Counted from the stretch's first letter, positions 15,743 through 47,009 are shown. The stretch is DNA of 64,000 nt from an uncultured bacterium (GCA_963777505.1 CAVZQN010000007.1:138452-202451), one strand, 5' to 3'. Numbers and translations are program-made. Notes: a model not told the origin generated them from the sequence alone.

Positions 15743-15774
15743 CGTTCACTCCCTTTTCCACCCGTCTTTATTAA
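15743..15774 (+). promoter_or_regulatory. Unassigned bipartite box CGTYCACT-N12/13-CGTCTTNNTTAA
   Basis: CGTTCACT-cccttttccacc-CGTCTTTATTAA, 48 bp upstream of ATG 15823; same box at 41591, 46004 and 46948. Confidence 0.6.
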
Positions 15775-15822
15775 CGATTGCAGTTGCGCGGTGATATTTT
15801 CGCGCATCTTGGAGGAGATAAC

Positions 15823-17238
15823 ATGGGCGATCTAAAAGTATCTGGAAATGTTGTACATCAAGGAGCACCGAAAACTGTTGATGAGCAAGTGCTCGATATT
15901 ACCGAAAGCCGGACAATGCCGCCAGGCAAGAAATTAGATGAATTGGAAAACACCTTTAAAAATTTACCCGATGGTGAGAAGAAGGAACTTTACGATCGTT
16001 TGAAAACGAAAAATAGACAGGATCCTGTATCCCGTTCATTTCATTACCGGTTCGCCCATTCAGGAAGCCCGGGGAAACTTTCGGAAGTGGATCGTCTCCT
16101 CAATGCGTTAAAGCCAGATCATGCGAAAGTGCCGGACAATCCAGCTGCAAAAAGCGGTCAACCTCCGAAATCTCCAACGAAGGGTCCATCCCCTAACCCG
16201 ATCAGCGACAAAACTGCAAGAGCAATCCTGATTGATTTTAAACCGCAAGCTCAGGAAGCAAAGACCGACTTTGGACCTGAAATTCAGGTCATGTCTAAAG
16301 ACATCCTTAAAACTCCAGCCGAAAAAGTTCAATACGCCCGCGAACGTTTAGAAAAAGCGAGCAAAGATGATTTGAGAAAAATTATTACCGAATCACAAAA
16401 TTGGCCCGAAGACAGCAGACAAATAGTATCTGAAGCAATGGCTGGATCTACAAAAGTAATGGGACGTCTCGCAAAAGAATTTACTCCGGTCGAGGCAGAA
16501 AAAATTATTGAGCGAGCGAAGTATGATTCCAAAAATGTAGAACCTGATGCTGTAGCGAAAAATGCAAAAGGTCTTCGGGCGTGGATGGACAATGCTGATC
16601 CTGTCGCATTGAATGTTCTTATGAGTAAAAGTTCTATATTGCATTCTGAGATTGCGGAGCAGGTCAAGGCAAACGATCTTGGAGTGTTTCAAAAATTACC
16701 TCCGAGAAACAAAGGCGACATCATTCAATTTGGCGTTATGACGGGATCGGATATGACGAATGGTCTGCGTTCGATGAGACCCTCTGAAAAGAATTCCACA
16801 ATGGAACGGCTTCAACAAATGAATTTGACGGATAAATTTGTGAAAGCGAGCGGAGCGAACATCGATCAGCGCCTCCTGGATGGTATCGATATCGATAAAA
16901 AAACAAACTTATTTACTTCAGGTGCCAAGCAAGGCATTGATATGAGCCGCGGATTTCATGGAATGGATGCGTCAGATAAGAATGCTGTCTTTGATGCACT
17001 TCAAGCAAATAATGACACTCAAGTATTTCAGTCCTTTGTTAGAACAACGGCTCCTAAATTAGACGGTGGATTCTTAAAAGGTCTCAATTCTGAGAATGTT
17101 GAATCTTTGCGCAAGACATTACTTTTCCTTGGAGACGCAGCGAAGTTGAAGAACCAGACCGATCTCGCCATTCTTTACCAAGGTAAGGCGAATTATCTTG
17201 AAAACTGGGCTCAAGAAAACTTCAGGCGCCAGAAGTAA
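15823..17238 (+). CDS. Hypothetical helical protein, putative export substrate
   Basis: GGAGGAG RBS, MGDLKVSGNV start, no signal peptide, Pro-rich linker, duplicated C-terminal unit (GSDMTNGLRSM / GIDMSRGFHGM). Confidence 0.65.
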   Translation: MGDLKVSGNVVHQGAPKTVDEQVLDITESRTMPPGKKLDELENTFKNLPDGEKKELYDRLKTKNRQDPVSRSFHYRFAHSGSPGKLSEVDRLLNALKPDHAKVPDNPAAKSGQPPKSPTKGPSPNPISDKTARAILIDFKPQAQEAKTDFGPEIQVMSKDILKTPAEKVQYARERLEKASKDDLRKIITESQNWPEDSRQIVSEAMAGSTKVMGRLAKEFTPVEAEKIIERAKYDSKNVEPDAVAKNAKGLRAWMDNADPVALNVLMSKSSILHSEIAEQVKANDLGVFQKLPPRNKGDIIQFGVMTGSDMTNGLRSMRPSEKNSTMERLQQMNLTDKFVKASGANIDQRLLDGIDIDKKTNLFTSGAKQGIDMSRGFHGMDASDKNAVFDALQANNDTQVFQSFVRTTAPKLDGGFLKGLNSENVESLRKTLLFLGDAAKLKNQTDLAILYQGKANYLENWAQENFRRQK

Positions 17239-17256
17239 TGTTTTTTTGGATTCTCG

Positions 17257-18105
17257 CTATTCGTCAATGTTCTTATGAATGATCGGATTAAACGGAATTG
17301 CAGCTGGGGCGCTCTCCATCTGAGTCAGATCTTGATTGGATAAACCCTCTTGCCAAGCTTGTTCGGCAACAATTGCATCTGTAGTCGTCATCGGATCACG
17401 AGTCTGAGAAGGCTGAGCTTCTTTCGCTTGCCGCTCCTTTTCTTTCGCAATCTGCTCAGAGACGGAATTCATTTCGCTTTGTACTTCTTCCAGCTGTGAA
17501 TTCAATGACTCGATATTGGTGTCTATTTCTCCGATCTTTCGCTCCAGATCAGTCTTGATCTTTTGCAACTTTTGCTTGTATAGAATTTCTAGGCCTACAA
17601 CACCAGGAATGATGGGCAGGTCAGCAATCATCCCAACAATTCCTATTGGTTCCAGTAGTTTACGTAGTTCATCAGTAATCGGTAGATTTGAGTTGATCAT
17701 CTCCATTACTGAGGCAAGGGCTTTTTGAGCTTTTAACTTCTCGCCTTCTGCAACCTCGATTTGTGATTGAAGGTCTGCGCTTCTTTCATTTAGAGCATTC
17801 AAACGGTCCATTAATTGAGGTAAACGATTATCGAGTTGACCTACACTCGGCTCATAAGAACTAAACAGAGAGGAAGCTTCCACGGTAATATCTCGAGTTT
17901 GAGAAGGCTGGATTAAAGATGCACTCTGGGCTTGCTCCTCGAGATAATAGAAATTCTCAGGAGCAGCCTCAAACTGATCTGCGGTTTTCGCAATACCAAA
18001 ATTCGGAATTAGTGGAGTCTGAATTTGGACTGGACTTTCAGTTTGCGGATTTTGATTCACATCGACTATTACAGAATTTGGCATCCTTCTACTGATGAAA
18101 CTCAT
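17257..18105 (-). CDS. Coiled-coil protein with central hydrophobic hairpin (translocator-like), putative export substrate
   Basis: GGAGGAG RBS; motif A GIAKTADQFE; two coiled coils flanking LLEPIGIVGMIADLPIIPGVVGLEILY. Confidence 0.6.
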   Translation of the reverse strand: MSFISRRMPNSVIVDVNQNPQTESPVQIQTPLIPNFGIAKTADQFEAAPENFYYLEEQAQSASLIQPSQTRDITVEASSLFSSYEPSVGQLDNRLPQLMDRLNALNERSADLQSQIEVAEGEKLKAQKALASVMEMINSNLPITDELRKLLEPIGIVGMIADLPIIPGVVGLEILYKQKLQKIKTDLERKIGEIDTNIESLNSQLEEVQSEMNSVSEQIAKEKERQAKEAQPSQTRDPMTTTDAIVAEQAWQEGLSNQDLTQMESAPAAIPFNPIIHKNIDE

Positions 18106-18179
18106 TTGTTCTCCTCCATATTGGTAACGCACAGATTTGCGTTAAACTCCCCAAAAATTCATGTGCATTTGAATGGTGG

Positions 18180-18419
18180 CTACGGCACCGGTATAGCGCT
18201 GTAAGAAACCTGACCGAGGTCATTCATCGATGGGTTGAATCCGATGAAGACAAATCCCTTTGCATCTTCGGCAATAGTCGTCAGGGTTCCATCTAACAGA
18301 TAAGAATAGTTCGGATCAGATGCTGGCTCTGGAAAAGAACCAGATTCACTCAGGCAAAATGGAATTTGAATTTGTGGTAACTGAGCCACCCGAAAAAGCC
18401 GCATCGATCCCCTCAACAA
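18180..18419 (-). pseudogene. Possible relic of an NxxGxVAF-type repeat surface protein
   Basis: TLTTIAED...FNPSMNDLGQVSY resembles PSINDxGQVAF repeats; no plausible start. Confidence 0.25.
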
Positions 18420-18576
18420 ATGATCGACAGTAATTAGTAGCCTTCCTGAAAAATCTCAGATCCACAAACTTTTTACGTTAAAGTCATTGACATGGGTTTT
18501 AACATGGTTTAATCTTCTTATTCTTCTTTCCGGTAACGGAACACCCCGATCCTTGTAATCGCAACCCATAAGTAAC

Positions 18577-19008
18577 ATGAAGCTTTCTATTTTCTTTATC
18601 GTTCTGATATCCGCTCAGTTTTGCGTGGAGGCATCAGAGAAGGTTCAGAACGGTTTGCTGGATCAAGAATTCACTATGAAGATTGGCCAGCAAGTTGAAT
18701 TCAAGCAGGACAAGCAGGAGAAGCTTCAGATTAAATTTACTTCCGTTCTTGAGGATTCCCGATGCCCAAAAGGCGAACAATGCATTACACAAGGGAATGC
18801 CAGGATTGAGCTGGAACTGGTGAAGGACGAAAAAGAATCTGCGTCCGTTCCGCTCAACACAGTTTCGGACTCTTCTGAAGCTGAATATCACGGCTTTACA
18901 ATCCATCTAATTTCTCTCAATCCTTATCCCGTGATGAATCGAAGTATCCGTGCAGAAGATTACGAAGCAGTACTGGAAGTGACGCTTACAAAGAATCGGC
19001 AACAATGA
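18577..19008 (+). CDS. Exported hypothetical protein with DSRCP..C motif
   Basis: Signal peptide; VLEDSRCPKGEQCITQGNA; LISLNPYP. Confidence 0.75.
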   Translation: MKLSIFFIVLISAQFCVEASEKVQNGLLDQEFTMKIGQQVEFKQDKQEKLQIKFTSVLEDSRCPKGEQCITQGNARIELELVKDEKESASVPLNTVSDSSEAEYHGFTIHLISLNPYPVMNRSIRAEDYEAVLEVTLTKNRQQ

Positions 19009-19070
19009 CGAATCTCGTGCTGTGATTCAGGTTACAGCACATTTCTAAGTAATCCCTTCAAGGAGGGTGC

Positions 19071-21894
19071 ATGAGAAAGTTGTTTTTGATTGCTACGATT
19101 CTATTCGTAGCCTTCCAGTTTACTTTTTTCGCTCACGCGGGCGACAAAAAGTCAAAAAACCAAAAAGCGCTTGATCCCGTCGGCATAAAACAGCTTAAGG
19201 AAGAGAGTCCAGCTAAAACCAAAGTCTACGTTTCAGATGCTACGGGCGCAGTGCGTTTTATCGGATTTGGTGCAGGCGGCGCGAAAGCGCTGGATAAAGC
19301 GGCTTCTGCGCAAGATCGATCTCTTTCATTCTTGCAGAAACACGGCAGTGTTTTTGGATTAAAGAATGCCATGACCGAATTGAAAATCATTGATGAAAGA
19401 AGTGATTTTCAAGGCGGAAAACATTTATCCTATGCGCAGCAGTATTTTGGAGTCCCTGTTTTTGCCGGAGTTCTCAAAACTCACTTCGATGCTGCCGGAC
19501 AGCTTCGCGCGATTAACGGCACCGTCATTCCGGAAATTAATGTGAATCACAATCCCACCAGAAAATCGGATGATGCTGCAGCTTCCGCTCTTGCAAGAAT
19601 CATTGATCAGAAAGGAAAGGACGAATCGATTTCTGTTGCGGGAACACGGTTAATGGTTTTTCGTTCAGGGCTTCTACAAGGCGTACCAGGCCAGAATCAT
19701 CTGGTATGGGAAGTTGAAGTTAGTAACGGAGCAGACGTCCGTGAGTTCGTTTACATCGACGCGCATACAGGCAAATTTGTAGATCAAATTACCGGTATCG
19801 TGGACTCAATGTTTCGTCGTGCATACGATGCGCTCGGTCAAACAGCACCTGGTCCAAATTATCCGGCCAGTCCCTACTGGGTAGAAGGTAATCCATTTCC
19901 GACAGCTTCAACCGAAGCCAACAACATGATTCTTGCCTCTGGCGAAGCATATGGATTCTTCTCAACTGCATTTGGCCGCGATTCGTTTGATGGCGTAGGC
20001 GGAATCATGGATTCCATTTTCAATCGAGGCAATGCATGCCCAAATGCTTCCTGGAATGGACAGTTCATTTCATTTTGCCCGGGCACCACTTCCGATGATG
20101 TAACAGTACATGAATGGGGCCATGCTTATACGCAATACACGCATGACTTGATTTACCAATGGCAATCGGGTGCGCTGAATGAATCGTATTCCGATATTTG
20201 GGGTGAAACTGTCGATATTATGAACGGACGTCAGACTGACACCCCTGGCACTCGTTGCTGCGAATAGCTGCAGTACATCCACAGCATTGCCACCCTCGGT
20301 TACAGTTAATTCTCCTCCAGCAATCGCAGGGCAAAAACAAGCAGGCAGCGCTGCTTTCGGTCCACAGAGCTTCAACCTTACGAATGACATTGTTCTTGCA
20401 AATGACGGCGTGGCGGCACCGAGCACAAGCGACGGATGTTGCGCTGCTCCCTCTTTTGTCTGTGCTCCTAATTCGTGGGCTAACGCCGCAGCAATAGCAG
20501 GCAAGATTGCACTTGTTGATCGCGGAACTTGCGGCTTTGAAATAAAGGCAAGAAACGCCCAGGCAAATGGTGCAGTTGGCGTAATCGTTGCGAACAATAC
20601 GGCGGGTATCATCAACATGGCTGGCGACGCGTTACCCGATCCCACAATCCCGTCACTATCAATCCTCCAAACTGATGGTAATGCAATCAAGGGTCAGCTC
20701 GCTATCCCTACCACGGTGAACGCAACATTAGCGCGTGGTGGAACAGGCTCAGATAACACTGTGCGCTGGTTGATGGGTGAAGATGCCACAGCCTTCGGCA
20801 GAGCGATCCGCGATATGTGGAATCCAACCTGTTATGGCAATCCCGGAAAAGTAACCGATACCCAATATTTCTGCGGAACGGGCGATAACGGTGGAGTACA
20901 TCTGAACTCGGGTGTGCCAAATCATGCATATGCGTTGATTGTCGATGGCGGTACCTATAACGGCCAAACAATTACTGCGTTAGGGTTTACAAAAGCAGCG
21001 CATATTTATTTCCGCGCAATGGCGGTTTACCAGGGTCCGGCAAGTAATTTCGCAGATCACGAAGTTTCTATCCTTCAATCTGCTGAAGATCTAGTTGGAA
21101 TGAATCTTCCCGATCTTGCTACGGGTTTGCCTTCAGGCCAAATCATTAGCACTGCTGATGTCACTGAAGTTGAACAAGCAATGCAAGCAGTTGAAATGAG
21201 CACATCGCCTACACAGTGCAACTTCCAGCCGATTCTGGCAAAGAACCCACCCGCACTCTGTGCGCCTGGTGACAAGTTGAAAGTACGTTTCAAAGACACT
21301 TTCGAAGATGTTGTTTTGTCCAACTCGCTCTGGAGTGTTAGTCATGAAGCGGTAACACCTGCTGACTTCACAGATCGTGATTGGGTGATTGTCACCGAGC
21401 TTCCGGATAATCGTGCAGGAAAAGGCTTCTTTGGAGTCAATCCGAACATCGGAACTTGTGGTCCTGGAGGAGATGAATCCGGCGTTCTTCACCTGACGAG
21501 TCCTCAGATTACCATACCATCCTCTGCATCGGCTCCAAGGATTTCCTTTGATCATTGGATCGCAACTGAAATTGGATGGGACGGTGGGAATGTAAAGGTC
21601 AGTGTAAACAATGGACCATGGCAGACTGTTCAATCAGCCGCCTTCATCTACAATCCCTACAACCTCGTGTTAAACCCTGCTCCAGGGAACACCAACCCGC
21701 TCGCGGGACAACCCGCATTTTCTGGAACCGATCAAGGTTCGGTTAGCGGGTCCTGGGGACGTTCCATCATTAACCTTACTGGGTACGCTGGTCCAAATGA
21801 TAAGATCAGAGTACGTTTAGATATTGGAAATGATGGATGTACCGGGATATTCGGTTGGTACATTGACGACTTCCAGGTCTATACCTGCAAGTAA
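19071..21894 (+). CDS. Secreted M4 (thermolysin-like) metallopeptidase with propeptide, inserted PA domain and C-terminal beta domain; indels near 20250-20290
   Basis: Signal peptide; CPNASWNG, VHEWGHAYT, SGALNESYSD; PA domain GKIALVDRGTCGF; GGVHLNSGVPNHA. Confidence 0.9.
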
Positions 21895-21907
21895 TTTGGA
21901 ATTACAC

Positions 21908-21937
21908 AAAGGGCGTCCCACCGGACGCCCTTTTTTT
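21908..21937 (+). terminator. Rho-independent terminator
   Basis: AAAGGGCGTCC-CACC-GGACGCCC followed by T7. Confidence 0.85.
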
Positions 21938-21977
21938 CTGCTATGTATAAAGGATAGTAGGCACTCCTGTTTTCGAA

Positions 21978-22349
21978 TTAACTAGAAAAGAAATGCCAGA
22001 TCTCGGACCACCATGACTTGGATTGCGGATCCTGTTGCGGATTCTTTTGATTCTCCATTTTTGAGGATATATCCTGCATCATCTGCTCTGCTCGAGATGC
22101 TTCTCCCATCATGTCTTGCGCTTGTTGAACATCAGTTCTTTCTGCCAAGTCAGCATCCATATCTTTCTTCAATTCATCGATGAATGTTGTCCCTTGTTCA
22201 ATGGGCCCTAATTGTTGCTTTATCTTTTCAGAAGAATACGATACCCCTCCGATACCAAACTGTGTTTTTGTTTTAGGTTGGCCGCCCAGAATTTCATCAG
22301 ATGCCTGTGGCTGAACAATCTGCGTTCCCGTTCTTATTCCTTTAATCAT
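21978..22349 (-). CDS. Small Q-rich helical protein, putative export substrate
   Basis: GGAGG RBS, MIKGIRTG start, degenerate motif A FGIGGVSYSSE, QMMQDISSKME helix, sigma54 promoter upstream. Confidence 0.6.
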   Translation of the reverse strand: MIKGIRTGTQIVQPQASDEILGGQPKTKTQFGIGGVSYSSEKIKQQLGPIEQGTTFIDELKKDMDADLAERTDVQQAQDMMGEASRAEQMMQDISSKMENQKNPQQDPQSKSWWSEIWHFFSS

Positions 22350-22376
22350 TTGTTGCTGCCTCCGACTCCTGAACAA

Positions 22377-22392
22377 AGCAAGGCGCATACCA
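22377..22392 (-). promoter_or_regulatory. sigma54 -24/-12 promoter
   Basis: TGGTATGCGCCTTGCT (GG-N10-GC), about 28 bp upstream of ATG 22349. Confidence 0.75.
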
Positions 22393-22471
22393 ATCCTCAT
22401 CACGAGAAGCAGAAAGGAATTGAACAGAGGAACGCCTTTGCCAAAAAGCAAAAGATTTGCCGTTTCGCAAA

Positions 22472-22921
22472 TTAAGAGTTCCCGCTGCCGGCAAGAATTC
22501 GCACAATTTTAACCGGACCATTTGGGACTTGCCGCTGATTGTAGAAAACAAACAATTGATTCGACTGCTGAGATGACATAAATGCTGTAACACCGGCAGC
22601 TGAACTTAGCTGCGAATTGTCTTGCGCGGCAAAAGCAAGGATTGCTTCCTCAGCTTTCACCAGAAGGTCATAACCTTTGCCTCTTGCGATGAATTGAACG
22701 GAATCATCTGCCTGACCATAGTTCGGCTCAAAGGTAAGTGGAAGTGTGGAAAAAGATTCTGCAATTTTGTTTTGATCATCGATTGCAGGCAAGGAAATCT
22801 GAGGAGCAACATCAATTGAAGTTGTCCGGCTGTTCGCAATTGGCTGACTGAAAATTCCCGCCGGAATTTGCAGCTGCAAAATTAAGATAACAACGAAGAA
22901 TTTGAATTTGATGTGCATCAT
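22472..22921 (-). pseudogene. Truncated N-terminal fragment of an SBBP-repeat protein
   Basis: Signal peptide plus LPLTFEPNYGQADDSVQFIARGKGY, paralogous to the start of 47145..49223, but ends after about 150 aa. Confidence 0.65.
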
Positions 22922-22980
22922 TCCTCCCACCTTCTCTGATGTTGCAGATCAAAATTCTATCAGAAAAACGGGATTCTGAT

Positions 22981-27012: not shown

Positions 27013-27582
27013 ATGGCATCGGATGGAATAACAAAACTGATCAAGGTCACACAACAGAAGTCGACAAACGCGAATGAAGAAGCCTTAGAAGGGGCGGCAA
27101 ACCAGCGATCTAATATAGATAAGCAAAAATCGCTAAGAGATGTACAGAAAACCCTCGATTCTTTTACGCAAGACTCCTCGATGTCGCGAGCTGATACCAA
27201 GGCAACTGCGAAACCCGGTGCGAATTTGAATTCAGGCGCCATTGCCTCAGAAGCTTCCGTTTCTAAGCCCGCAAGCTATCTCACAAGATTTTCGAAATCG
27301 GGCTTTGAGAAGTCCAGTCTGTTTTCAGCAGCCGGGTTAGCAAAAAATCTAGTCGATGTTCGCTCCAGCCCCACACATTACGCCAGCGGACTCAATGCCT
27401 TTGTGAAAGCACTCAGGGAAAGGTTTGAGGAATCAACCAAGGACCTTGAAGGAAAGGATAAACTGGGAAATTTTGAGATTAATAACTTGCTGAGCGTTTT
27501 CAATCAAGCGGAAACTCTGGCAGCTAGCACGAAAAAGAAGACCGATGATCAAAACGGTTCTGTAGCCGGGAAGATAGGATGA
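27013..27582 (+). CDS. Putative T3SS-like substrate with needle/translocator-like C-terminal helix
   Basis: AGGAGG RBS; S/T/A-rich N-terminus; C-terminal DKLGNFEINNLLSVFNQAETLAASTKKKTDDQNGSVAGKIG; overlaps chaperone gene by 4 bp. Confidence 0.6.
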   Translation: MASDGITKLIKVTQQKSTNANEEALEGAANQRSNIDKQKSLRDVQKTLDSFTQDSSMSRADTKATAKPGANLNSGAIASEASVSKPASYLTRFSKSGFEKSSLFSAAGLAKNLVDVRSSPTHYASGLNAFVKALRERFEESTKDLEGKDKLGNFEINNLLSVFNQAETLAASTKKKTDDQNGSVAGKIG

Positions 27583-28022
27583 CCGAAAAAAACCAACGAC
27601 AGGAAAAAAACCAGAGCGGTGAACAAGTATCTTCCGAAGCGCTTGCATCGGCCCTTCATTTTGCTCTACTTCATGAAGAGAACGGCCAGTACGATACTGC
27701 TGTAGCCGCTTTCAAATCCCTTCTATTGATGGATCCGTTAAATCCTTATTTTCACGCGATGCTCGGCTCGATCTATCAAAGGCAAGGGGATTATGAAAGC
27801 GCCATCCAACAATACACGGAAGCACTAAAAATATTTCCATCTGATATAGACTCGCTTACCAATCTCGGTGAGATACTGCTGAAGATAGCACAACCCCAAA
27901 GAGCTATACAGTGTTTAAAACAAGCAGTGGAGATAGATACAGAGGGGAATCATCCCTCCGCGAATCGTGCCCGACTTATGTTGTCCCGTTTACTAGAAAC
28001 AGTCGATCCAACTTCCAAGTAA
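27579..28022 (+). CDS. Small TPR protein resembling SycD/LcrH class II T3SS chaperones
   Basis: 147 aa, three TPRs (GQYDTAVAAFKSLLLMDPLNPYFHAMLGSIYQRQG...), terminal HPSANRARLML helix, coupled to upstream substrate-like gene. Confidence 0.65.
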   Translation: MTEKNQRQEKNQSGEQVSSEALASALHFALLHEENGQYDTAVAAFKSLLLMDPLNPYFHAMLGSIYQRQGDYESAIQQYTEALKIFPSDIDSLTNLGEILLKIAQPQRAIQCLKQAVEIDTEGNHPSANRARLMLSRLLETVDPTSK

Positions 28023-31015: not shown

Positions 31016-31091
31016 GTTTTTGCACAGTGTCTCTGCTCGAGGCAATTTACAATCCTGCTGTACAATACAAACCAATGGTAAGGGTTCACTG

Positions 31092-32193
31092 GTGATCGGG
31101 GAAACTGTTTCACATTATCGCATTCTAAATAAGCTTGGTGGCGGCGGTATGGGCGTGGTGTATGAGGCAGAGGATCTGAACCTCAAACGTCATGTCGCAC
31201 TGAAATTCCTTCCTGAGGATTTAGTTGCAACTCCGGAAGCATTGGAACGATTCCGGCGTGAAGCTCAATCAGCATCTGCTCTGAACCATTCGAATATCTG
31301 CACAATCCACGAAATCGGCGAACACGAAGGACGTCCTTTCATTGCCATGGAAATGATGAAAGGAAAAACGTTGAAGCATGTCATCGATGGAATGCCGCTG
31401 GAAATCGATCAACTACTGGAACTGGCTACTCCAATTGCGGACGCGCTTGATGCAGCTCATGCCGAACACATCATTCATCGCGATATTAAGCCGGCCAACA
31501 TTTTCGTGACTGAACGCGGGTAGCAAAACTACTCGACTTTGGTCTAGCCAAACAGACCAGCTGACTGAAATCAGATACGGAGATGCCCACTGCCAGCACA
31601 CCGCAACAACTCACAAAAAGCGGATCGACTATGGGAACAGTTGCTTATATGTCGCCCGAACAAGCACGCGGAAAAGATCTCGATGCACGCACCGATCTTT
31701 TCTCATTTGGAGTTGTGCTCTACGAAATGGCAACTGGCGCACTTCCCTTTGAAGGTAAATCATCCGGAGAAACTCTGGAAGCAATCTTTACAAAAGAACC
31801 CGTTGCACCGGTTCGATTGAATTCGAAAGTGCCTGCCGATCTGGAACGGATCATCGCTAAAGCGATGGAAAAGGATCGCAATTTGCGATATCAAAGTGCG
31901 GCAGATATGCGTACCGATTTGCAGCGATTAAGGCGCGATACATCTATGCACTACCGTGCGAGCAGGTCTTAGACCCCGCCCCTACAGTCTAGCGTAAATT
32001 AATCGGAATCTGCTATTGTTGTAGTACTACTGGCAGCATCATTCTTCCTCCTCAGCGCGAACAACGAGACGGTGGCCTTTCCGAAATGAGAGGCGTTCCC
32101 CTGCTACGCAGCTTGCACAGTGAACCGCGCTGGATAGCTTTCCTGATTAAAATGAAACTGCCAGTCGATTTATCAGCGAACGCCTGCGCTTGA
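31092..32193 (+). pseudogene. Decayed Ser/Thr kinase (kinase-TM-TPR type) with indels and a large internal deletion
   Basis: Kinase motifs [19 protein letters not shown], (shifted) [16 protein letters not shown] over several frames; TM IVVVLLAASFFLL fused directly to family C-terminus RDGGLSEMRGVPLLRSLHSEPRW. Confidence 0.85.
31960..31985 (-). repeat. GTAG-type REP-like palindrome inside the kinase relic
   Basis: GTAGGGGCGGGGTCTAAGACCTGCTC on minus strand; near match to 62310 and 63441 copies. Confidence 0.75.
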
Positions 32194-39281: not shown

Positions 39282-39327
39282 AATGTAAACACAACGCGCG
39301 CGAGAGGTCGCAACATTGAAACGGTTG
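39282..39327 (-). repeat. 46-bp relic of the TM0106-like helicase 3' region
   Basis: Encodes NRFNVATSRARCVYI, matching 61231-61276 and the equivalent stretch of the 58669..58928 copy. Confidence 0.75.
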
Positions 39328-39596: not shown

Positions 39597-39624
39597 GCAA
39601 GGGCGATCACAACGTCGCCCTTGC
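39597..39624. terminator. GC-rich hairpin downstream of 39682..41556
   Basis: GCAAGGGCGA-TCACAACG-TCGCCCTTGC; weak U tract. Confidence 0.5.
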
Positions 39625-39681
39625 CAGTCTCCGGAACTTCAAGGGGCTTAACGGAAAAACGCTAAGCCACGAATAACCTTA

Positions 39682-41556
39682 TTAAACGCCACCAGGAATT
39701 TTGGGGTGCAAATCTACATGAGTGTAAGAACTTTGAAGCGCAGATAAAAGATCGTGACCGTCGCTACCTGGCGCTGCTTCCCGCAGTTCCTGAAAGAGTT
39801 CCTCCATGACTTTATCCGCGCGCAAACCCGGATATTCTTTCAACAAATATTTCACGGCTTCATCTTTGGTCATATCTTTCAACGCATCCTTCGCTTTTCC
39901 ATGAACACCTGCAACGATTTTGGAAATCGTTTCCGCGCCTTCGATTCCAAGCATCTTTTTAGGAATGCCCCCTCCCGGCAGTAAGCTGAATCCAAGATCC
40001 ATCATCCACTTTAATCCGGCTTCATTCGCAGCCTTGCGATCTTTCGCACTCTTAACCGCAGTCTGCATTCCATTGTTAACAAAGCCCATGGTTTCGCCCA
40101 TGATGTGCGTGAGTTGAGTCCGTTCCATTCCGTATTTCGCAGAGAAAGCTTGTTTTGACATTTTTGAATCGTTGATGTCGGCCATCCAACCGTTCATTTT
40201 TCCTGCAAGAAATTTACTCGTCTCATCACGATACTGGCCTGTAGGTTCAGAAAACAGAGCATGCTGGAAAAACCCTTCCAGTTTCGGCTGAATTGCCGAC
40301 CTGTGTGGGTTGTTGCTTTCGTCATCAAATACCGCCTTATTTTGTGCAAGTCCAGATTTCCAAATCTTATCGAAATCATCCTGGAAAATTCCGGATAAGG
40401 CATCTTTCATGTCCGTGCTTTTAGACCAGATTGGGATCCGTTTAGCGTCAGAGTACACGTCTGCTGCTGATTGGAACATGTTTAACCGAAGGTCTTCCAA
40501 CTCTTTAACATTAATCGGGAGTGACCGATCACGCGAACCTCCGTGACTTGCTATGTAGGTAGTATTGACAAGATTAGCGACACCTGTGGGCTGTTGAGTG
40601 GCCTCGGCCTTTCTTCCTTCATACGTGGAAGAGGCTTCATAAACGGACTGAGGTTGATAAGAAGTCGCATCTTTAACAAATGAGTCAAGCTTGTTTTCCT
40701 TACTCAGCTTGCTCATGAATTTCAGTTGATCTTCGATGGTAGTTTTCCCCATCAATTCCGCAGCTGATGTAGCATAAGCCGCTTTCGCTGTAGCATTCCA
40801 CTGATAGGCTTGATAAAGCTGCATATTGTTTTCAGCAAACGACTTCTTCAAGTTTTCTGCTTGAGGAAGATTCGAAATGGACGTAGAAAGTTTTGCTAGA
40901 GTATCCACTCCCTGAGCGTTTGCAGCATGCACTATGCCCTGGACGTCCGATGATGTGAGATCGCCAGATTTATGCAGCGTATGAATAGCATCTCGCACAC
41001 CTCCTGTATATTTATCAACATCCGCTTTTGAGTTATTGGGACGGCTGATGTACAGGAAATTGTGAGATCGTGCGATTAGTTCTTTGCTCTTGTCGCCGCC
41101 AATTGCTCCGAAAAATTCCTTCAGATATTTCGGATCATCTTTGTGTTTGGAAACTAATTCATGAAACTGCAGCGACGCATGAGCCGGGTCGGTATTTTCA
41201 TATTTCATTACATGAGCTGCAGCTTCGATTGGTTTATCAAAGTTTCTAACAACGACATTTTTCAGATCCATTCCGGGTCCGTCAAAGACCGCGGCTTGTG
41301 GTTTCGCTCCGGCCGGTAGGGCGTTATTCAAGTTTTGCTGAACCAGTTGTCCTGATATCTGAAGCTGACTTTTTGTTTCGGTTCCTTGCTGTTTCAAGGC
41401 TGTTGAAGTTTTTGCGGTTACTGCAGGGTCGTCCGCAGGTTTCGACGGCGGTGGTGGGGTTGTGATTGGTTGTTTATCCTGGGTTGCCCCGACATTGCCA
41501 GAATCCGTTCGGGTTATAGGTTTTGTTGTTGGATCGCCTATTGGTCCGCCACCCAT
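39682..41556 (-). CDS. Large helical putative effector with C-terminal hydrophobic segment
   Basis: AGGAGG RBS; MGGGPIGDP P/T-rich N-terminus; motif B KSQLQISGQLVQQNL; LKWMMDLGFSLLPGGGIPKKMLG. Confidence 0.7.
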   Translation of the reverse strand: MGGGPIGDPTTKPITRTDSGNVGATQDKQPITTPPPPSKPADDPAVTAKTSTALKQQGTETKSQLQISGQLVQQNLNNALPAGAKPQAAVFDGPGMDLKNVVVRNFDKPIEAAAHVMKYENTDPAHASLQFHELVSKHKDDPKYLKEFFGAIGGDKSKELIARSHNFLYISRPNNSKADVDKYTGGVRDAIHTLHKSGDLTSSDVQGIVHAANAQGVDTLAKLSTSISNLPQAENLKKSFAENNMQLYQAYQWNATAKAAYATSAAELMGKTTIEDQLKFMSKLSKENKLDSFVKDATSYQPQSVYEASSTYEGRKAEATQQPTGVANLVNTTYIASHGGSRDRSLPINVKELEDLRLNMFQSAADVYSDAKRIPIWSKSTDMKDALSGIFQDDFDKIWKSGLAQNKAVFDDESNNPHRSAIQPKLEGFFQHALFSEPTGQYRDETSKFLAGKMNGWMADINDSKMSKQAFSAKYGMERTQLTHIMGETMGFVNNGMQTAVKSAKDRKAANEAGLKWMMDLGFSLLPGGGIPKKMLGIEGAETISKIVAGVHGKAKDALKDMTKDEAVKYLLKEYPGLRADKVMEELFQELREAAPGSDGHDLLSALQSSYTHVDLHPKIPGGV

Positions 41557-41590
41557 TTTTTTGTCCTCCTGTTACATATTTGTTTACTCT

Positions 41591-41623
41591 TTAAGGAAGA
41601 CGATCCAACTCACCTAGTGAACG
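41591..41623 (-). promoter_or_regulatory. Unassigned bipartite box CGTYCACT-N12/13-CGTCTTNNTTAA
   Basis: CGTTCACT-N13-CGTCTTCCTTAA, 34 bp upstream of ATG 41556. Confidence 0.6.
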
Positions 41624-41723
41624 GAGAACAAAGACACAAAGAACAAATATTACTTAGATCTTATAAATCCTTTGTGACCTTTATTCTTTGTGGTGATTTC
41701 AATTCTTTCGCACGCAACATCTC

Positions 41724-42984
41724 CTACTTCTCATCATCAACGATCACTTTTGAATCATCGCTGTTATAGACAACATCGTTGCCATCTGTTTCCACTGTGA
41801 TTGGAGCCACGCTATTTTCCTCACTGCGCACCCAGTAATCCTGTCCGGTATAAGAATCTCTCATCCAATAACCGCCAGTGTCCGATCCATCATGATTTTC
41901 TTTAACGTAAACATGATCGTAGCCTTCTCCTGGATTGATTGTTGTTCCTTCTCCGGATGTCTGATTGATCCGATCGTTTCCGCCGCCTGTTGCGATTTTG
42001 CTGTAATCTCCGCTATTTTCAACCCAATCATTTCCATCGCCGGTCTGAATAGTGGAACCACGGCCTTTATTGTCAACGTAATCATCGCCGTCACCGGTAG
42101 AAATGGCTGCTCCGATTGGTCCCTCGACTAACACTGAATCATTTCCTGCTCCCGTATCAACGCGGTTGGCGTAACCGGAGTAAGTGTCAATTCCTCCATT
42201 CGTAAAGCGCTCACTGCTCAGGCGAACCCAATCAGCTCCGTCTCCGGTTTGTATTTCGTTATTGTCTCCGGTTATTTCTACAATATCGTTTCCATCGCCT
42301 GTGTTAATTTGATTATTGTCTCCATTCGAGTTGACCGTGTCGTTTCCCGCACCTGTATCGATCGAAGTAAGCGAGCTCTGATTATTTACTACATCATTTC
42401 CATCACCGGTCTGAAGCTTAGTACCGACCAAATAATTCATGTTATGGATGTTCACAGTATCGTTTCCTGCGCCAGTATTGATTGTCAGTGACTGATATTG
42501 TCTGACTGTCCCGGACCATGCTTCCTTTCCATTTACATTCACATGAACTCTTCCATCGGAACTCTGTTGGATATCAACGAGATCATCACCATCACCTGTG
42601 AACAGGGTCCTGGGCAACAGAGCTCCATTCCATGGATCTCTACCAGTAAGTGGTTTTCGCTGATCGTATTCAGGTTTGTTATTGATTTGCTGATCTGCCT
42701 GACTCTCCGTTAAGGGCGCTTTCAGATCAACTTGTGCGATGTTTTGAAGCGATTCAGGATTCGATTTCATAGATTCGTTGTTAGCTAGCTGTTGAGTCAA
42801 CTGTGAGCGCATAGCCATTGTTGAAAACATAGCTTCACTTCGAATCGATGAATTTGCGGCCGAAACTGGTTTTGTCTGCGGTGGCGCAATCTGCTCCTGC
42901 ACATTTTGCTGCTGAGTTTCCTCAGTCTCCGTTTATTTCCGGCGTTGTAATCCGTGGTGCTGAATTGATTCCGACCTTAAACAT
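41724..42984 (-). CDS. Putative effector with RTX-like Ca-binding repeats (extra A near 42933 separates true start)
   Basis: GGAGG RBS + MFKVGINSAPRITTPEI joins TETEETQQQNVQEQ; motif B RSEAMFSTMAMRSQL; about 10 TG[DA]G[ND]D repeats. Confidence 0.7.
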
Positions 42985-43012
42985 TTTTCCCTCCTGATGC
43001 TTTCAGCACTAA

Positions 43013-43028
43013 AGCAACGCTTATGCCA
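43013..43028 (-). promoter_or_regulatory. sigma54 -24/-12 promoter
   Basis: TGGCATAAGCGTTGCT (GG-N10-GC), 28 bp upstream of ATG 42984. Confidence 0.8.
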
Positions 43029-43183
43029 AGGGCATTGTGCGGGGATCTCGAGGATACGATCAGATCAGAATGCGTTTTGTTTTTTGCGAATCGGCAAAAA
43101 TTTGCCGTTTGGCAAATTCTTGCTTTTACACCCGCTTTTTGAGGGCCAGTTTTTACTGCGAGCTCTAATTCAGTAGCAGGAAC

Positions 43184-43216
43184 GAGCGCGGGCTTAGGTT
43201 TTGTAAGCCCGCGCTC
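43184..43216. repeat. GC-rich inverted repeat (terminator or REP-like)
   Basis: GAGCGCGGGCTTA-GGTTTTG-TAAGCCCGCGCTC just after stop of 43225..44685. Confidence 0.5.
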
Positions 43217-43224
43217 TAAAAAGA

Positions 43225-44685
43225 TCAAGGATTGAGAAACGGTTGAACGGATGAAAAGTAAAACGCTAACGCGCCATCTACGGTAGCGTTGTCTTCACCC
43301 GGCCCGCTGGAGCATGCATCGTTTGGGTTACTTCCGCATGTACCGCTGAGTTGTCCTACGATCTGCGTTGAGCTGTTGACGATCGGAGAACCGCTGCTTC
43401 CACCGTCGATGGCACCAAGCGTATCCCGGCTGTAGATTCGCTGTCCGCGGGGCCAGCCTGAACAAGTAGACGCACTGGTATCTACATCGTGTTCTGAATA
43501 AACCTGCGGACCAAAATTCGGGTTACTGACCCGAAAGAGATCGGTTCCATTGCTGTTCGCTACCGGAGCTGTGGTCCATGCCAAAAAAACGGAACCACCA
43601 GGTGGATTAGAATTCAGATGAAGCAGCGAGAAGTCTCCTTTTTTCCCTGTCGCGGAGACAGTCGCACCCTGCGTTTGAAATGACCATCCACCATTCGTTG
43701 GACAAGTCCCTTCACAGGACGAAGTAGCGAATCGCCAGTAGAAGTTGACGTTCCTGGCATTGTTGTTTTTGCTAACGCAATGATTCGCTGTGAGGAAAAA
43801 GTTATTCTGCGATGGATTGTTGTCACTGATAAGCCCACCTGTGCAAGTGTAGAGGAATGCGCCCTGTGGCCACTCCATTTTTGCAACTGCCAGTGACAGC
43901 GTGTCGGCGATACCGCCGTAGCAAGTCGCATCCTCAACGCAGTTTATATTGTCACATGGCCAGTTCGCCAGGGGTGCATTCGGTACGAGTTTGAAAATCT
44001 CTTGCGATCCACCTGCGTATCTACGCGTAATCAAACCTGCTTGCCGAACCCGAAACGAAACTTTACTCAAGTTCGACTTTGCTGCCGCAGATGAAATGTG
44101 CAGTTGCAGGATCGCTTCCGAACCGAAAATAGTGGCGGTCCAGAATTCACCTGTACGATTGGGACCCTTTCCGGTATAAGGACCATAAGCCTGACCATCC
44201 TTACTGTACAGGTAAACTTTTGTGTCGGCAGGAAGCGACATGTTTTCCACATGCAGTCTGATCGCACCTGCGTTATCCGCATTGAAAACTGCTGCCCATA
44301 CGAGACCACCGTCACGCGTTGTTGTGCGAGCGATACTTTTACCGCGAACTTCAATGCGTGGATTGATTGCCTTCACCATTCCAATTTTCAGTGGAACTGT
44401 CGATTTCGACTTTTCAATCGAGGCCGCTTCTTCCGCTGTAAACGGAACTCGAACAGCCATTGCATTGGAAGGCAAATCACCAAGTAGTTTGCCTGTTAAC
44501 TCTGCTTGTGCTGCCTTTTGCTGCTCGACAGTCAAACCTCCCGACACAAGCCGCATCGGTGAGGAAACATGCGACGCTGAATCCGCAGAGTCGGCAGCAA
44601 GCACCGAGCCTGCACCTAAGACCAACAAGACGAAAGCCATTACCGTTACGATCGATTCCAGAGAGAGAAATCGGTCAGTATTCAC
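43225..44685 (-). CDS. Secreted trypsin-like serine protease (lysyl-endopeptidase-like)
   Basis: Signal peptide; CTGGLISDN, FLTANHC (His), DFSLL (Asp), GGSSGSP (Ser). Confidence 0.88.
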   Translation of the reverse strand: MNTDRFLSLESIVTVMAFVLLVLGAGSVLAADSADSASHVSSPMRLVSGGLTVEQQKAAQAELTGKLLGDLPSNAMAVRVPFTAEEAASIEKSKSTVPLKIGMVKAINPRIEVRGKSIARTTTRDGGLVWAAVFNADNAGAIRLHVENMSLPADTKVYLYSKDGQAYGPYTGKGPNRTGEFWTATIFGSEAILQLHISSAAAKSNLSKVSFRVRQAGLITRRYAGGSQEIFKLVPNAPLANWPCDNINCVEDATCYGGIADTLSLAVAKMEWPQGAFLYTCTGGLISDNNPSQNNFFLTANHCVSKNNNARNVNFYWRFATSSCEGTCPTNGGWSFQTQGATVSATGKKGDFSLLHLNSNPPGGSVFLAWTTAPVANSNGTDLFRVSNPNFGPQVYSEHDVDTSASTCSGWPRGQRIYSRDTLGAIDGGSSGSPIVNSSTQIVGQLSGTCGSNPNDACSSGPGEDNATVDGALAFYFSSVQPFLNP

Positions 44686-44789
44686 GACCCACCTCCGTTC
44701 TATTTATTTAACCGCAGAAAAACATTTGGATAAAGAACATATTCCAATATATATAAGGAAGCTTTCTGCGCCTTCCTCCCCACAAAGCC

Positions 44790-45130
44790 ACAAAGTTATC
44801 TTTTCTCTGAGGAAGGCAGTAAAACGCGGATCCTTTCTAATGTTACGCAAAAGCGGATCTCCTTTCATTTCGGATAATCCACCATCACGTTGGACGTATG
44901 CGCGTTCCAACCATTCGAATGCTTTATCTGTCTCACCGCGGTAGGAATATACACTAACAACTTGATACGCTGAATCACCTTGGTATTTTTGGATCAGTTC
45001 TGCTAATGCGGCATCCGATTCTTTTTCTTTCCCAAATCGTGATATGCGGATGCGAGGCCCGTCAATCGAAAAGCCATATCTGGTTCACGCTGCATTTCAT
45101 CCAATGCAGCTTGAGGTTTCGACTGCGCCA
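44790..45130 (-). pseudogene. C-terminal TPR relic of a kinase/adenylate-cyclase-TPR family gene (boundaries approximate)
   Basis: SAYQVVSVYSYRGETDKAFEWLERAYVQRDGGLSEMKGDPLLRNIRKDPRF, same family tail as at 32060-32190. Confidence 0.7.
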
Positions 45131-45279
45131 GGTACACGCAGCCAAGTATGTAATGATCGAAAGTATTATTTGAAATACGCGAGAAAATGTCGACGCAGAT
45201 CGGCAGAAAAAATGATTATTTTTGGGGGACAAAGAAAGGTTATGAGTTACCGATAGATATTCAACGGGGGGAGCAACTT

Positions 45280-45975
45280 TTACTTACGCGGTTTGATCAT
45301 TTTCTCCATTTCAGCACTTATGTTTTCAATATCCATCGTTGCTTGAGTCACTTGATTTTGAGTGTTAGCGGGACGCGTAGAGGTTTTACTTAATTCCAAT
45401 CTATCCTTAGCCTGCTTCAGTTGGACCCCTTGCCTATTTCGCGTGAGGCTCGCGGATTCTGCATCGAGTTGATCTGCTTGTGCGCGGCTTTTATTATCAT
45501 CCGGACCGCTATTCGCTCGAAGGTATTCCGCCCGCTTCTGAAAACTTGCACGAACGATATTTAGCGCGGGCCATCCGCCTTTAGTTCTTGCATCGCTTAT
45601 AGCTTTCTTCAATCCTTCCGGCTCTTCACCTGTGGCAACATAACGTTGTAGTTGCTCATTCGTAATCCCATACATCTTGAGAGCCTTCTGTAGAGCAGCG
45701 CCGTCGGATTTTGGTGTTTGATTCGTAGCACGAGTTGTCCCTGTAGAAATCTTTTTGTTTGTCTGGTTGAGCAATTGCGATTGAAGTTGATTCGCCGTTA
45801 TTCCTGCTTCAGCTTTACGTAAATTGGCGGCTTCAGGTTGAAGCTTTGGCGACGCGGCTTCCTGCTGAGAATTACCTACAGGATTTTTTTGGATCTTGTC
45901 TTCTGCTGATTGCGTATCGGATCCAGCCGAATCCGGAATCCGTACTAAACCGCGAATTGATAGATCATTGCTCAT
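45280..45975 (-). CDS. Putative T3SS-like export substrate, Q/A/K-rich helical
   Basis: GGAGG RBS, MSNDLSIRG start, motif B KAEAGITANQLQSQL, no signal peptide. Confidence 0.65.
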   Translation of the reverse strand: MSNDLSIRGLVRIPDSAGSDTQSAEDKIQKNPVGNSQQEAASPKLQPEAANLRKAEAGITANQLQSQLLNQTNKKISTGTTRATNQTPKSDGAALQKALKMYGITNEQLQRYVATGEEPEGLKKAISDARTKGGWPALNIVRASFQKRAEYLRANSGPDDNKSRAQADQLDAESASLTRNRQGVQLKQAKDRLELSKTSTRPANTQNQVTQATMDIENISAEMEKMIKPRK

Positions 45976-46065
45976 GAGCGACCTCCACAATGAACTTCCC
46001 TTGTTAACAAAGACGTGCGGCGTAGCTAGTGGACGAAGACGGCTTTTTTAAAATCATTTACTTCG
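45952..46065 (-). repeat. 114-bp promoter/RBS/first-codons block, copy 1 (contains CGTCCACT-N12-CGTCTTTGTTAA at 46004..46035)
   Basis: Near-identical to 46896..47009. Confidence 0.9.
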
Positions 46066-46188
46066 GGGACGCGACCGAAATGCGAAACCATTAATCGAAT
46101 TTCATCCCCGATGGCAAAATCCGACACACATCCTATACAGCCTGACTTATAGCCGGATTAGGAATCAACTTTCTCTGAATGGTAGTAT

Positions 46189-46488
46189 TTATCTGCTCCC
46201 CAAACGCTCCTTCTTTTTCCTAACTGGCACCAAGGAAAGTTTTTTTAGATCGACACGCGAAAATGTATTCTTTTCAAGCAAATTGGAATCAACCTTTAAA
46301 ACTTTCATTTCCCCTTTCGACGCAGTTGAGAACGATCGGGCGTGATTTCGCGCCTCCTGTTCGATCTCTGATTCTTGAAATATTGGTGCACCAGGCATTG
46401 AAATCACATGATGGATATGAAGAATTTTTCCCGTCTTTTTTTCATAAACGATAAAGGACTTATCCGTTTTTAGGATTTGTGGTGTCAT
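46189..46488 (-). CDS. Hypothetical protein
   Basis: MTPQILK...IVYEKKTGKILHIHHVISMPGA; starts 2 bp after upstream stop. Confidence 0.65.
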   Translation of the reverse strand: MTPQILKTDKSFIVYEKKTGKILHIHHVISMPGAPIFQESEIEQEARNHARSFSTASKGEMKVLKVDSNLLEKNTFSRVDLKKLSLVPVRKKKERLGSR

Positions 46489-46490
46489 AT

Positions 46491-46808
46491 TTACTCCCAC
46501 CAAAACATATTCGCAAATCCTTCGAGTGATTGACTGCCTCCAGTTGCTACACCAAAGGTCACGCTTAACATGGTTTCAGAAAATACGGTATTGGGCCAAT
46601 TTGTCCATCCACCAAAATCTTTTGTTATTGTTTGTCCGTCTTTCTTGAATTTGAACGAAACAATTCCAACTTTGTGAGTACCACCTCCGCGGACATAATT
46701 TAGACCTGTTTGAGCCATGACATTTGCCGGAGGAAAATTCACTGTAAGTGAACTGATGTTCGAACCTTCAGACCAAAGAATTTTCGTTGCAGCACCAATG
46801 AGGGCCAT
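46491..46808 (-). CDS. Small beta-rich hypothetical protein
   Basis: AGGAGG RBS, 105 aa, no signal peptide. Confidence 0.7.
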   Translation of the reverse strand: MALIGAATKILWSEGSNISSLTVNFPPANVMAQTGLNYVRGGGTHKVGIVSFKFKKDGQTITKDFGGWTNWPNTVFSETMLSVTFGVATGGSQSLEGFANMFWWE

Positions 46809-46895
46809 AAATACACCTCCTGATTCTTGCTTCTACAGGTATCTTACTCCACTGTCATTCTGCGTTGCACCACGTGACCAGGTAGTTATCGATTA

Positions 46896-47009
46896 GCGAA
46901 TTGATAGATCATTGCTCATGAGCGACCTCCACAATGAACTTCCCTTGTTAACAAAGACGTGCGACGTAACTAGTGGACGATGACGACTTTTTTAGAATAA
47001 TTTACTTCG
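46896..47009 (-). repeat. 114-bp promoter block, copy 2 (box at 46948..46979; encodes MSNDLSIR* only)
   Basis: Direct repeat of 45952..46065 with a few substitutions; reading frame stops after 8 codons. Confidence 0.9.

Follow-up and report, generated by a model that had tools for sequence, protein, structure and literature searches.

A bipartite box, probably read by an alternative sigma factor, upstream of mostly family-less genes in an uncultured bacterium

In Pseudomonas syringae and Erwinia, HrpL, a sigma factor of the extracytoplasmic function (ECF) type, works through the hrp box, GGAACC-N15/16-CCACNNA, which stands before genes and effectors of the type III secretion system (T3SS), and promoters of sigma-28 (FliA) take the form TAAA-N15-GCCGATAA. 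Here we describe another short bipartite element, CGTYSACT-N12/13-CGTCTTnnTTAA, which occurs four times in a 64,000-nucleotide stretch of DNA from an uncultured bacterium (GCA_963777505.1, CAVZQN010000007.1:138452-202451; hereafter the window) and recurs across the genome to which that stretch belongs. We read the box, with good confidence, as an alternative-sigma promoter and, a step less firmly, as the −35/−10 pair of a promoter recognised by an ECF-type factor and heading a lineage-specific regulon. The promoter reading rests on the combination of two unlike halves, a fixed orientation, a rigid spacer, nearby start codons and the lack of any other conserved block. It had been put forward in an initial annotation of the window, and is supported by the CGTC −10 element, the rigid 13/14-nt spacing and the strict co-orientation of the sites with start codons 15–96 nt away.

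Promoters of ECF sigma factors typically carry AAC at −35 and CGT at −10, with CGTC the commonest −10 form, and most ECF factors autoregulate and are co-transcribed with an anti-sigma factor (PMC3426412, PMC8103513). Our box shares with these promoters the CGT(C) −10 and the rigid spacer, and the factor that we favour as its reader has a co-transcribed zf-HC2 anti-sigma factor; the norm that ECF promoters lie upstream of, and co-oriented with, their genes holds for 19/20 high-scoring sites. Against an ECF spacer norm of ~16 ± 1 nt, the spacer measures 13–14 nt when counted from CAC, but 15–16 nt, near the norm, if the −35 core is taken to be CGTTC; whether the spacing is shorter than typical, as the initial annotation had it, depends on this register.

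The nearest described −35 element is that of the ECF41 promoter, TGTCACA-n16(±1)-CGTC (Wecke et al. 2012, PMC3426412), and group-specific exceptions to AAC thus exist. The likeness lies in the CGTC −10 and in a −35 built around a GT(n)CAC core instead of AAC. Here, however, the −10 is extended to CGTCTTnnTTAA and there are ~15 targets instead of one neighbouring gene, and the C-terminal extension of the ECF41 sigma factor is absent from both candidate sigma factors discussed below. Three differences from described ECF systems weigh against our assignment: the −35 half reads CGTYSACT, with AAC in 0/29 compiled sites; the gap from CAC to CGTC is 17 nt in ECF41 and 13–14 nt here, i.e. 3–4 nt shorter; and autoregulation is not apparent, as the 600 nt upstream of each of 30 sigma genes, the favoured ECF gene included, contain no box (10.4 being the highest score).

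The HrpL system resembles ours in that a short bipartite ECF-type promoter marks scattered, fast-evolving, effector-like genes and can be used as a list of them, and in that the wider lineage here carries a non-flagellar T3SS. It differs in that the sequence and spacing of the hrp box are unrelated to CGTYSACT-N12/13-CGTCTTnnTTAA and that the regulon described here also includes non-effector genes. The 29-site consensus rules out identity with the hrp box itself, and a −10 of CGTCTT, not of the GCCGATAA type, rules out a sigma-28/FliA promoter. The initial annotation had called the box an hrp-box analogue for an alternative sigma factor; the sigma part of that proposal is supported, while the sequence is not that of the hrp box and no T3SS was found in the source genome. 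The comparison is reasonable as an analogy, and it stays one because the link to a T3SS is indirect and the sigma factor that we favour a candidate. A literature search for the box string returned primer-type matches only, though the motif may still be published, for example in the supplementary promoter tables of ECF classifications. We read the box as a group-specific ECF promoter that comes with its regulon; ECF promoters as a kind are already known.

Sequence, spacing and distribution of the box

With its 64 kb, the window forms the end of contig C7 in the source genome (G000; 5.23 Mb in 14 contigs, 44% G+C, 95.86% complete), which was compared with a congener from the same genus (G001) and with other relatives, likewise given G-numbers. 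Gene calls were crude, being the longest open reading frames (ORFs) with starts chosen with Shine-Dalgarno sites in mind, and cover 69–88% of each contig (83–88% for the nine contigs >100 kb).

Within the window, the string CGTCTTNNTTAA occurs in four copies (15763 on the plus strand; 41591, 46004 and 46948 on the minus strand) against 0.13 expected (≤1 in 100 shuffles), and every copy is preceded on its own strand, at 12–13 nt, by CGTYCACT. Taken by itself, CGTYCACT shows weak enrichment (8 occurrences vs 2.69 expected; 1/100 shuffles reached 8). From the TTAA end of boxes 1 to 4 (Table 1) to the ATG there are 48, 34, 28 and 28 nt, and a GGAGG-type ribosome site precedes each ATG. All four boxes are therefore placed and oriented as the initial annotation had described, 28–48 nt before a start codon, but boxes 3 and 4 are copies within a 122-nt direct duplication (45952–46073 and 46896–47017, 93% identical), so that the window holds three independent sites. 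The second copy of the duplication contains the promoter, the leader and 8 codons, followed by a stop. The two copies differ by two substitutions in the spacer and four in the upstream flank and by none in the boxes; this observation, already made in the initial annotation, is correct yet carries little weight, because the sequence that follows the −10 box is likewise identical for ~70 nt. Rfam and tRNA scans of the window gave no match, and so none overlapping any site.

Across the genome, the pattern GTYCAC-N13/14-CGTC has 25 matches, with 14 intergenic and 13 lying ≤150 nt upstream of a co-oriented gene. When at most one mismatch to CGTTCAC-Nx-CGTCTT is allowed, intergenic and in-gene sites number 13 and 5 for a spacer of 13 nt and 3 and 2 for 14 nt; the counts are 0 and 4 for 12 nt and 1 and 4 for 15 nt. 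We scanned the genome with a two-block position weight matrix (PWM) trained on 10 independent sites, counting scores ≥23 as high, and obtained 20 sites, the next score being 19.1. Controls at the same threshold gave one site in the reversed genome, 0, 1 and 0 in three Markov-1 random genomes, and 0 with wrong spacers (10–12, 15–18). The motif is real and far above chance genome-wide: a chance origin is ruled out by these controls, and origin as a repeat element by the divergent spacers and flanks.

The 20 sites comprise the 10 training sites, four paralogous copies (on C7, C12 and C13) and six new ones. All except one, which lies inside an ECF sigma gene on contig C6, precede a co-oriented ORF with a Shine-Dalgarno site, and the start codon comes 15–96 nt after CGTC; the scan thus bears out a bias in both orientation and distance. 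Contigs C5 and C7, with 6.7% of the assembly between them, hold nine of 15 independent sites.

To follow the box into relatives, we used the exact pattern CGTTCAC-N13/14-CGTCTT, with the backwards sequence as control. The source genome has 9 matches (control 1) and the congener 8 (control 1); of 39 other relatives, nine show a single match and 30 show no match. An unpublished genome, G035, enters this tally and the phylum-wide one given below, and none of our conclusions depends on it. The looser GTYSAC-N13/14-CGTCNTNNTT matches 17 times in the congener (control 2), once in G002 (control 0), twice in G003 (control 4), four times in G004 (control 1) and four times in G005 (control 1); G003 (410 contigs, 95% complete) and G005 (83% complete) are both fragmented. 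Fifteen of the congener's 17 loose matches lie directly upstream of a co-oriented ORF, one lies inside the orthologue of the C6 sigma gene and one is doubtful.

Five orthologous targets carry the box in both the source genome and the congener: a DUF1326 protein, a STAS protein, the proteins that we call 'MxTTIG' (~468 aa) and 'MAKIN' (~100 aa), and a PG-binding protein. These five promoter pairs are 38–54% identical overall; the matching positions cluster in both boxes and in the Shine-Dalgarno site, spacers and flanks have diverged, and no further block is conserved between box and ribosome site. We compiled 29 sites (15 from the source genome, 14 from the congener), of which 26 have CAC and CGTC 13 nt apart and three have them 14 nt apart. 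CGTC is present in 29/29, as the search patterns required, and the following TT, partly required, in 26–27/29. Columns that the search patterns left free are nonetheless conserved, namely the C before GT (28/29), the T after CAC (23/29), the fifth base of CGTCTT (26/29) and each A of the A-A after TT (18/29). The box as first described is thus upheld, down to its TTAA. The two-genome consensus is CGT(T/C)(C/G)ACT, 12 nt (rarely 13), then CGTCTTnnTTAA.

Genes behind the boxes

The regulon amounts to ~15 independent transcription units in the source genome and ~15 in the congener. Most first genes have no Pfam or NCBIfam family. As a crude index of N-terminal disorder, we took the fraction of residues 2–51 made up by G, S, T, P, Q, N, D, E, K or R, with 4752 called proteins as background; 8/12 first genes lie at or above the 96th percentile and 10/12 at or above the 89th. 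A hydrophobic start resembling a signal peptide or transmembrane segment occurs in 1/12, vs 31% of the background. By this crude measure, the enrichment for genes with disordered N-termini and no signal peptide that the initial annotation had anticipated is present.

The 471-aa protein behind box 1 shares modules with four other box-driven proteins, of 247 and 176 aa on C5 and of 416 and 234 aa in the congener. The gene for the 624-aa protein behind box 2 exists in three copies, 97–98% identical (C7, C12, C13), and the 231-aa gene behind box 3 has a 97% identical copy on C13. In the ESM Atlas, the 624-aa protein reached unnamed clusters only (0.90, low recognition) and the 471-aa protein found no usable match; a PDB sequence search had no match for either. 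The same search matched the PG-binding repeat of the window's 639-aa PG_binding_1 protein to 1lbu (E 1.6e-4). That protein has box-driven paralogues on C5 (a 479-aa gene) and in the congener, and its own gene is preceded by a broken box, CGTTCAC at 6683–6689 followed after 20 nt by CGTATGTTAA. As far as sequence can tell, the conserved core of the regulon is small (STAS, DUF1326, PG-binding, 'MxTTIG' and 'MAKIN') and is surrounded by a fast-changing, family-less shell.

Directly upstream of box 2 lies a 392-aa ORF (41724–42902, minus strand) with repeats of 54–57 nt period (families D1 and D3) and no Pfam match. In the source genome, the effector-like targets of the sites at C5:1810, C4:1737746 and C8:429462 are split between frames. 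Within the window, a hybrid histidine kinase (10092–12843), an M4 thermolysin-like protease (19071–21894), a Ser/Thr kinase (31020–31972) and a sigma factor (7854–8418) are likewise split into adjacent frames, through either assembly indel errors or the decay of many genes.

Table 1. Promoter boxes, genes behind them and other features of the window considered in the text (positions counted from the first nucleotide of the window).
Feature	Position	Strand	Description
Promoter box 1	15743..15774	+	CGTTCACT-N12-CGTCTTTATTAA; PWM 34.2, the genome's top score
First gene after box 1	15823..17238	+	471 aa; no Pfam/NCBIfam family; disordered N-terminus (97th percentile)
Promoter box 2	41591..41623	-	CGTTCACT-N13-CGTCTTCCTTAA; PWM 30.7; near-identical copies on C12 and C13
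First gene after box 2	39682..41556	-	624 aa; no family; Pro/Thr/Lys-rich disordered N-terminus (100th percentile)
Promoter box 3	46004..46035	-	CGTCCACT-N12-CGTCTTTGTTAA; PWM 32.6
First gene after box 3	45280..45975	-	231 aa; no family; disordered N-terminus (98th percentile)
Promoter box 4	46948..46979	-	Duplicate of box 3, within the 122-nt direct repeat
Transcription unit after box 4	46189..46919	-	8-codon remnant of the 231-aa gene (46893-46919) and two ORFs
First ORF behind box 4	46491-46808	-	105 aa; matches no family
Second ORF behind box 4	46189-46488	-	99 aa; matches no family
PG_binding_1 protein	4702..6621	-	639 aa; disordered N-terminus; repeated helical modules; HEVSH (HExxH-type) near residue 530
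Rival sigma operon	6784..8418	-	Divergent ECF-like sigma, 156-aa protein and M78/IrrE-like peptidase
ECF-like sigma	7854-8418	-	Two frames in the source genome (split in the linker); intact, 173 aa, in the congener
156-aa family-less protein	7394-7864	-	Predicted sigma-4 binder
M78/IrrE-like peptidase	6784-7392	-	Same operon
SycD/LcrH-like TPR gene	27579..28022	+	147 aa; full-length best NCBIfam match, 69.6 bits, below the 104.8 cut-off

Candidate readers of the box

The source genome has ~30 sigma-70-family genes. The candidate that we favour, at close to an even chance, is a 204-aa ECF factor encoded on contig C6 and paired with a zf-HC2 transmembrane anti-sigma factor (hereafter the C6 ECF); a factor other than this one or the window sigma factor considered below would take the probability that the two leave over. 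Orthologues of the C6 ECF are present in G000, G001, G003 and G005, exactly the genomes with promoter-like boxes, and none was found in G002, G004 or G006. In G003, the C6-type sigma gene is not followed by an anti-sigma gene; a lone full-length anti-sigma homologue is encoded elsewhere (34% identity, E 4e-54), 21 nt behind a perfect 17-base box, CGTTCAC-N13-CGTCTTATTTAA, for which we calculate a chance expectation of ~0.002 per genome. In G005, two small Cys-rich peptides are encoded behind a box (GTTGACTCC...CGTCCTGGTTA) that comes straight after the C6-type operon of sigma and anti-sigma genes. Also, a box-like site inside the C6-type sigma gene scores 23.3, 23.3 and 16.3 in G000, G001 and G005, respectively, all of which have the anti-sigma gene next to it, and 3.9 in G003, which does not. 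The sigma-E-dependent rseA P3 of E. coli (PMC8595263) is a precedent in which a sigma-dependent promoter drives the anti-sigma gene apart from the sigma gene, and may serve as a model for both the box before the lone G003 anti-sigma gene and the putative internal site, which differs in overlapping a coding motif.

Some of this evidence is open to a less favourable reading. The internal site overlaps the conserved protein motif CVDRLR and lies ~330 nt before the anti-sigma start, so its conservation may be driven by coding alone. One of the two G003 box sites is nearly identical in DNA to the congener, and its contig may for that reason be misbinned. The stretch concerned covers the start and promoter of a PG-binding gene (G003 contig C262, L078; G001 contig C1, L075), and such similarity between different genera suggests either misbinning in G003 or recent transfer. 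The two peptides behind the G005 box (contig C501, L086/L068) combine a leader rich in Lys and a GG motif with Cys-rich tails, and look like precursors of ribosomally synthesised and post-translationally modified peptides.

Several other factors were set aside. The initial annotation had suggested a sigma factor at the start of the window (3..512; 18–512 in our calls), which finds no support: it is one of ~8 PF07638-type paralogues next to Ser/Thr kinases, with no box upstream and no link to the motif. Behind this PF07638-type ECF gene (18–512, plus strand) comes a TPR-repeat Ser/Thr kinase of 1120 aa (714–4076, plus strand), and a second kinase of the same build (1136 aa, 49344–52754, plus strand) is followed by a calpain-like C2 peptidase. 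A sigma-B-like reading, which the 13–14 nt spacing and the STAS target might invite, was rejected since the only group-2/3 sigma factor is RpoS/RpoH-like and lacks an RsbW-type neighbour. The FliA/WhiG-like sigma factor of the congener's T3SS cluster has no counterpart in the source genome, and its own cluster contains GCCGATAA-like −10 elements. An ECF42-like sigma factor with a YCII partner on C5 has no box upstream and belongs to a type whose own promoter is known. The arrangement there (C5, ~66 kb, L011, 14348–16048), unrelated to the box, is of a DUF6596-domain sigma factor with a TPR tail, then a YCII-domain gene, which we take to be that of ECF42.

The other half of the initial annotation's suggestion, the divergent ECF-like sigma factor at 7854–8418, remains a candidate. 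The box would then still be a promoter, read by this window sigma factor, with the neighbouring peptidase cleaving the 156-aa protein to free it; we consider this quite unlikely. Among 401 genomes of the phylum, its orthologues are restricted to G000 and G001, the two genomes with large regulons, yet a co-distribution over two genomes is weak evidence, because many other genes must be genus-restricted too, and the factor was not found in G003 or G005, which have good boxes, one of them perfect. It is encoded 7 kb from box 1 and directly upstream of a paralogue of box-driven genes, but that gene has only the broken box with a 20-nt spacer, no box precedes the sigma gene itself in the source genome, and none lies within 10 kb of it in the congener (best score 16.7). 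Its unusual divergence (TIGR02937, 32.1 bits vs a 42.9 cut-off) would fit an unusual −35 element. That its reading frame is broken in two in the source assembly counts against it. The three-gene order of its operon is kept in the congener (L042), and a complex model places residues 11–46 of the 156-aa protein on the sigma-4 domain with a score of 0.78 vs 0.00 for the best control, a mark reached by 116/157 solved complexes and 2/215 mismatched pairs; three runs share ≥74% of contacts, with a predicted local distance difference test (pLDDT) of the partner of ≥72. The model therefore supports binding of the predicted partner to sigma-4. The window sigma factor has 25 close clusters (≥67% identity) in a set of 5.8 billion proteins, and a metagenome scan for it yielded one 3.8-kb contig, without a box. 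Among the papers that a literature search listed, none joined an ECF sigma factor with M78/IrrE/ImmA, which does not show that the module is unpublished; the operon may be that of a sigma factor gated by a protease-sensitive partner, and this could be a new mode of gating.

A further possibility is that the box is not a promoter but the site of a conventional activator or repressor beside an ordinary promoter. Both halves begin with CGT and lie 20–21 bp, or two helical turns, apart, a LuxR-type response regulator and a hybrid kinase are encoded 2–5 kb from box 1, and no sigma gene is autoregulated by the box. Set against this are the strict strand orientation relative to the gene, the unlike halves, which are neither symmetric nor repeated, the orthologous pairs, which keep only the boxes and the Shine-Dalgarno site with no separate −10-like block, and the distance of 15–96 nt from CGTC to the start codon, which at many sites leaves little room for a further promoter. 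We therefore regard a transcription factor site as very improbable and retain the alternative-sigma promoter as our reading of the box. On that reading, domain 4 of the sigma factor would contact CGTYSAC and domain 2 CGTC, and transcription would start near TTAA to give leaders of ~10–90 nt ending in a strong Shine-Dalgarno site. If the C6 ECF is the factor, its zf-HC2 anti-sigma partner may sense an envelope or contact signal and so release the regulon.

Secretion systems and the function of the regulon

The family-less, disordered proteins without signal peptides could be substrates of the non-flagellar T3SS of relatives. FHIPEP was found in 7/8 relatives tested (G001, G002, G003, G004, G005, G007 and G009; missing in G006, which is 73% complete), and the flagellar rod domain was not found in 5/5 relatives tested, so that a non-flagellar T3SS is a trait of the class. 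In the congener, a compact cluster with FHIPEP (SctV) occupies ~93–110 kb of contig C3 (L106/L107) and encodes SctU, SctT, SctS, SctR, FliK/SctP-like and YscO-like proteins, the ATPase (SctN), SctL, a short YscJ-type lipoprotein, an FHA-SctQ fusion, FliO, SycD/LcrH-like TPR chaperone-like genes and the FliA/WhiG-like sigma factor. The source genome has five loci of ~150-aa TPR proteins whose best family is the SycD/LcrH T3SS chaperone, below the cut-off, all on C5 and C7. The 147-aa member in the window (Table 1) is a paralogue of the TPR genes beside the congener's cluster and is not itself preceded by a box. Its start is overlapped by a family-less gene of 189 aa (together 27013–28022, plus strand), with ATAATA upstream, sigma-70-like by eye, and no box.

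Several observations weigh against the effector reading. Searches of the source genome for FHIPEP, FliP, the T6SS sheath VipB, a phage-type sheath and VirB4 (T4SS) found none of them, and tblastn with 27 proteins of the congener's T3SS region gave generic matches only. The absence reflects either an assembly gap or recent loss; the former is plausible, given that the window runs up to the end of its contig and that copies of effector genes are spread over small contigs. It is thus the relatives and the SycD/LcrH-like TPR genes on which the effector reading depends. A T3SS is also present in G002 and G004, which lack the box, so box and T3SS are not coupled across the family. The congener's T3SS cluster has no strong box, the best, upstream of the FliA-like gene, scoring 17.3, within background, and GCCGATAA-like strings occur inside it. 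Finally, the regulon contains ordinary-looking genes for STAS, DUF1326, 2-oxoglutarate-Fe (2OG-Fe) oxygenase, methyltransferase, SDR, alpha/beta hydrolase, AurF-like and FG-GAP/ASPIC proteins.

The same facts feed an alternative that we take seriously while rating it clearly below even: the regulon is real, but serves a stress, dormancy or cell-envelope programme, its disordered hydrophilic proteins staying in the cell or envelope. The core shared with the congener (STAS, in anti-anti-sigma-like form, DUF1326, and PG_binding_1 or LysM proteins) and the enzymes among the members fit such a programme, as do the failure to find a T3SS in the source assembly, a box that does not track the T3SS across the family, and a congener cluster with its own FliA/WhiG-like sigma factor. 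It sits less easily with the strong bias of the N-termini towards disorder and their lack of signal peptides, with a multi-copy membership of quick turnover, with a box-driven ankyrin-repeat protein in the congener (Ank_2, 197.6 bits), with SycD/LcrH-like paralogues on C5 and C7, the contigs that hold 9/15 independent sites, and with a T3SS in most relatives tested. We arrive at the tentative view, a little short of even, that the targets of the box may be T3SS substrates. The T3SS-effector part of the initial annotation thus finds backing in relatives that possess a T3SS and in SycD/LcrH-like genes near the targets, and fails to find it in the source genome, which lacks a detectable T3SS, and in the congener's cluster, which lacks the box. 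That an ECF/anti-sigma pair unrelated to HrpL independently became the master switch of non-flagellar T3SS substrates in one genus seems to us rather unlikely.

If the promoter reading is true, the box makes ~15 co-regulated, mostly family-less proteins per genome accessible from sequence alone in this uncultured lineage, and defines a new ECF promoter specificity (a −35 without AAC, an extended −10) that would be suited to heterologous ECF reporters. If the regulon is linked to the class-wide non-flagellar T3SS, these hypothetical proteins would become candidate effectors. Should the master-switch reading also prove true, CGTYSACT-N12/13-CGTCTTnnTTAA would list ~15 effectors per genome, among them ankyrin-repeat, PG-binding/HExxH and wholly new proteins, and would suggest that a soil lineage has a cell-targeting lifestyle not recognised so far.

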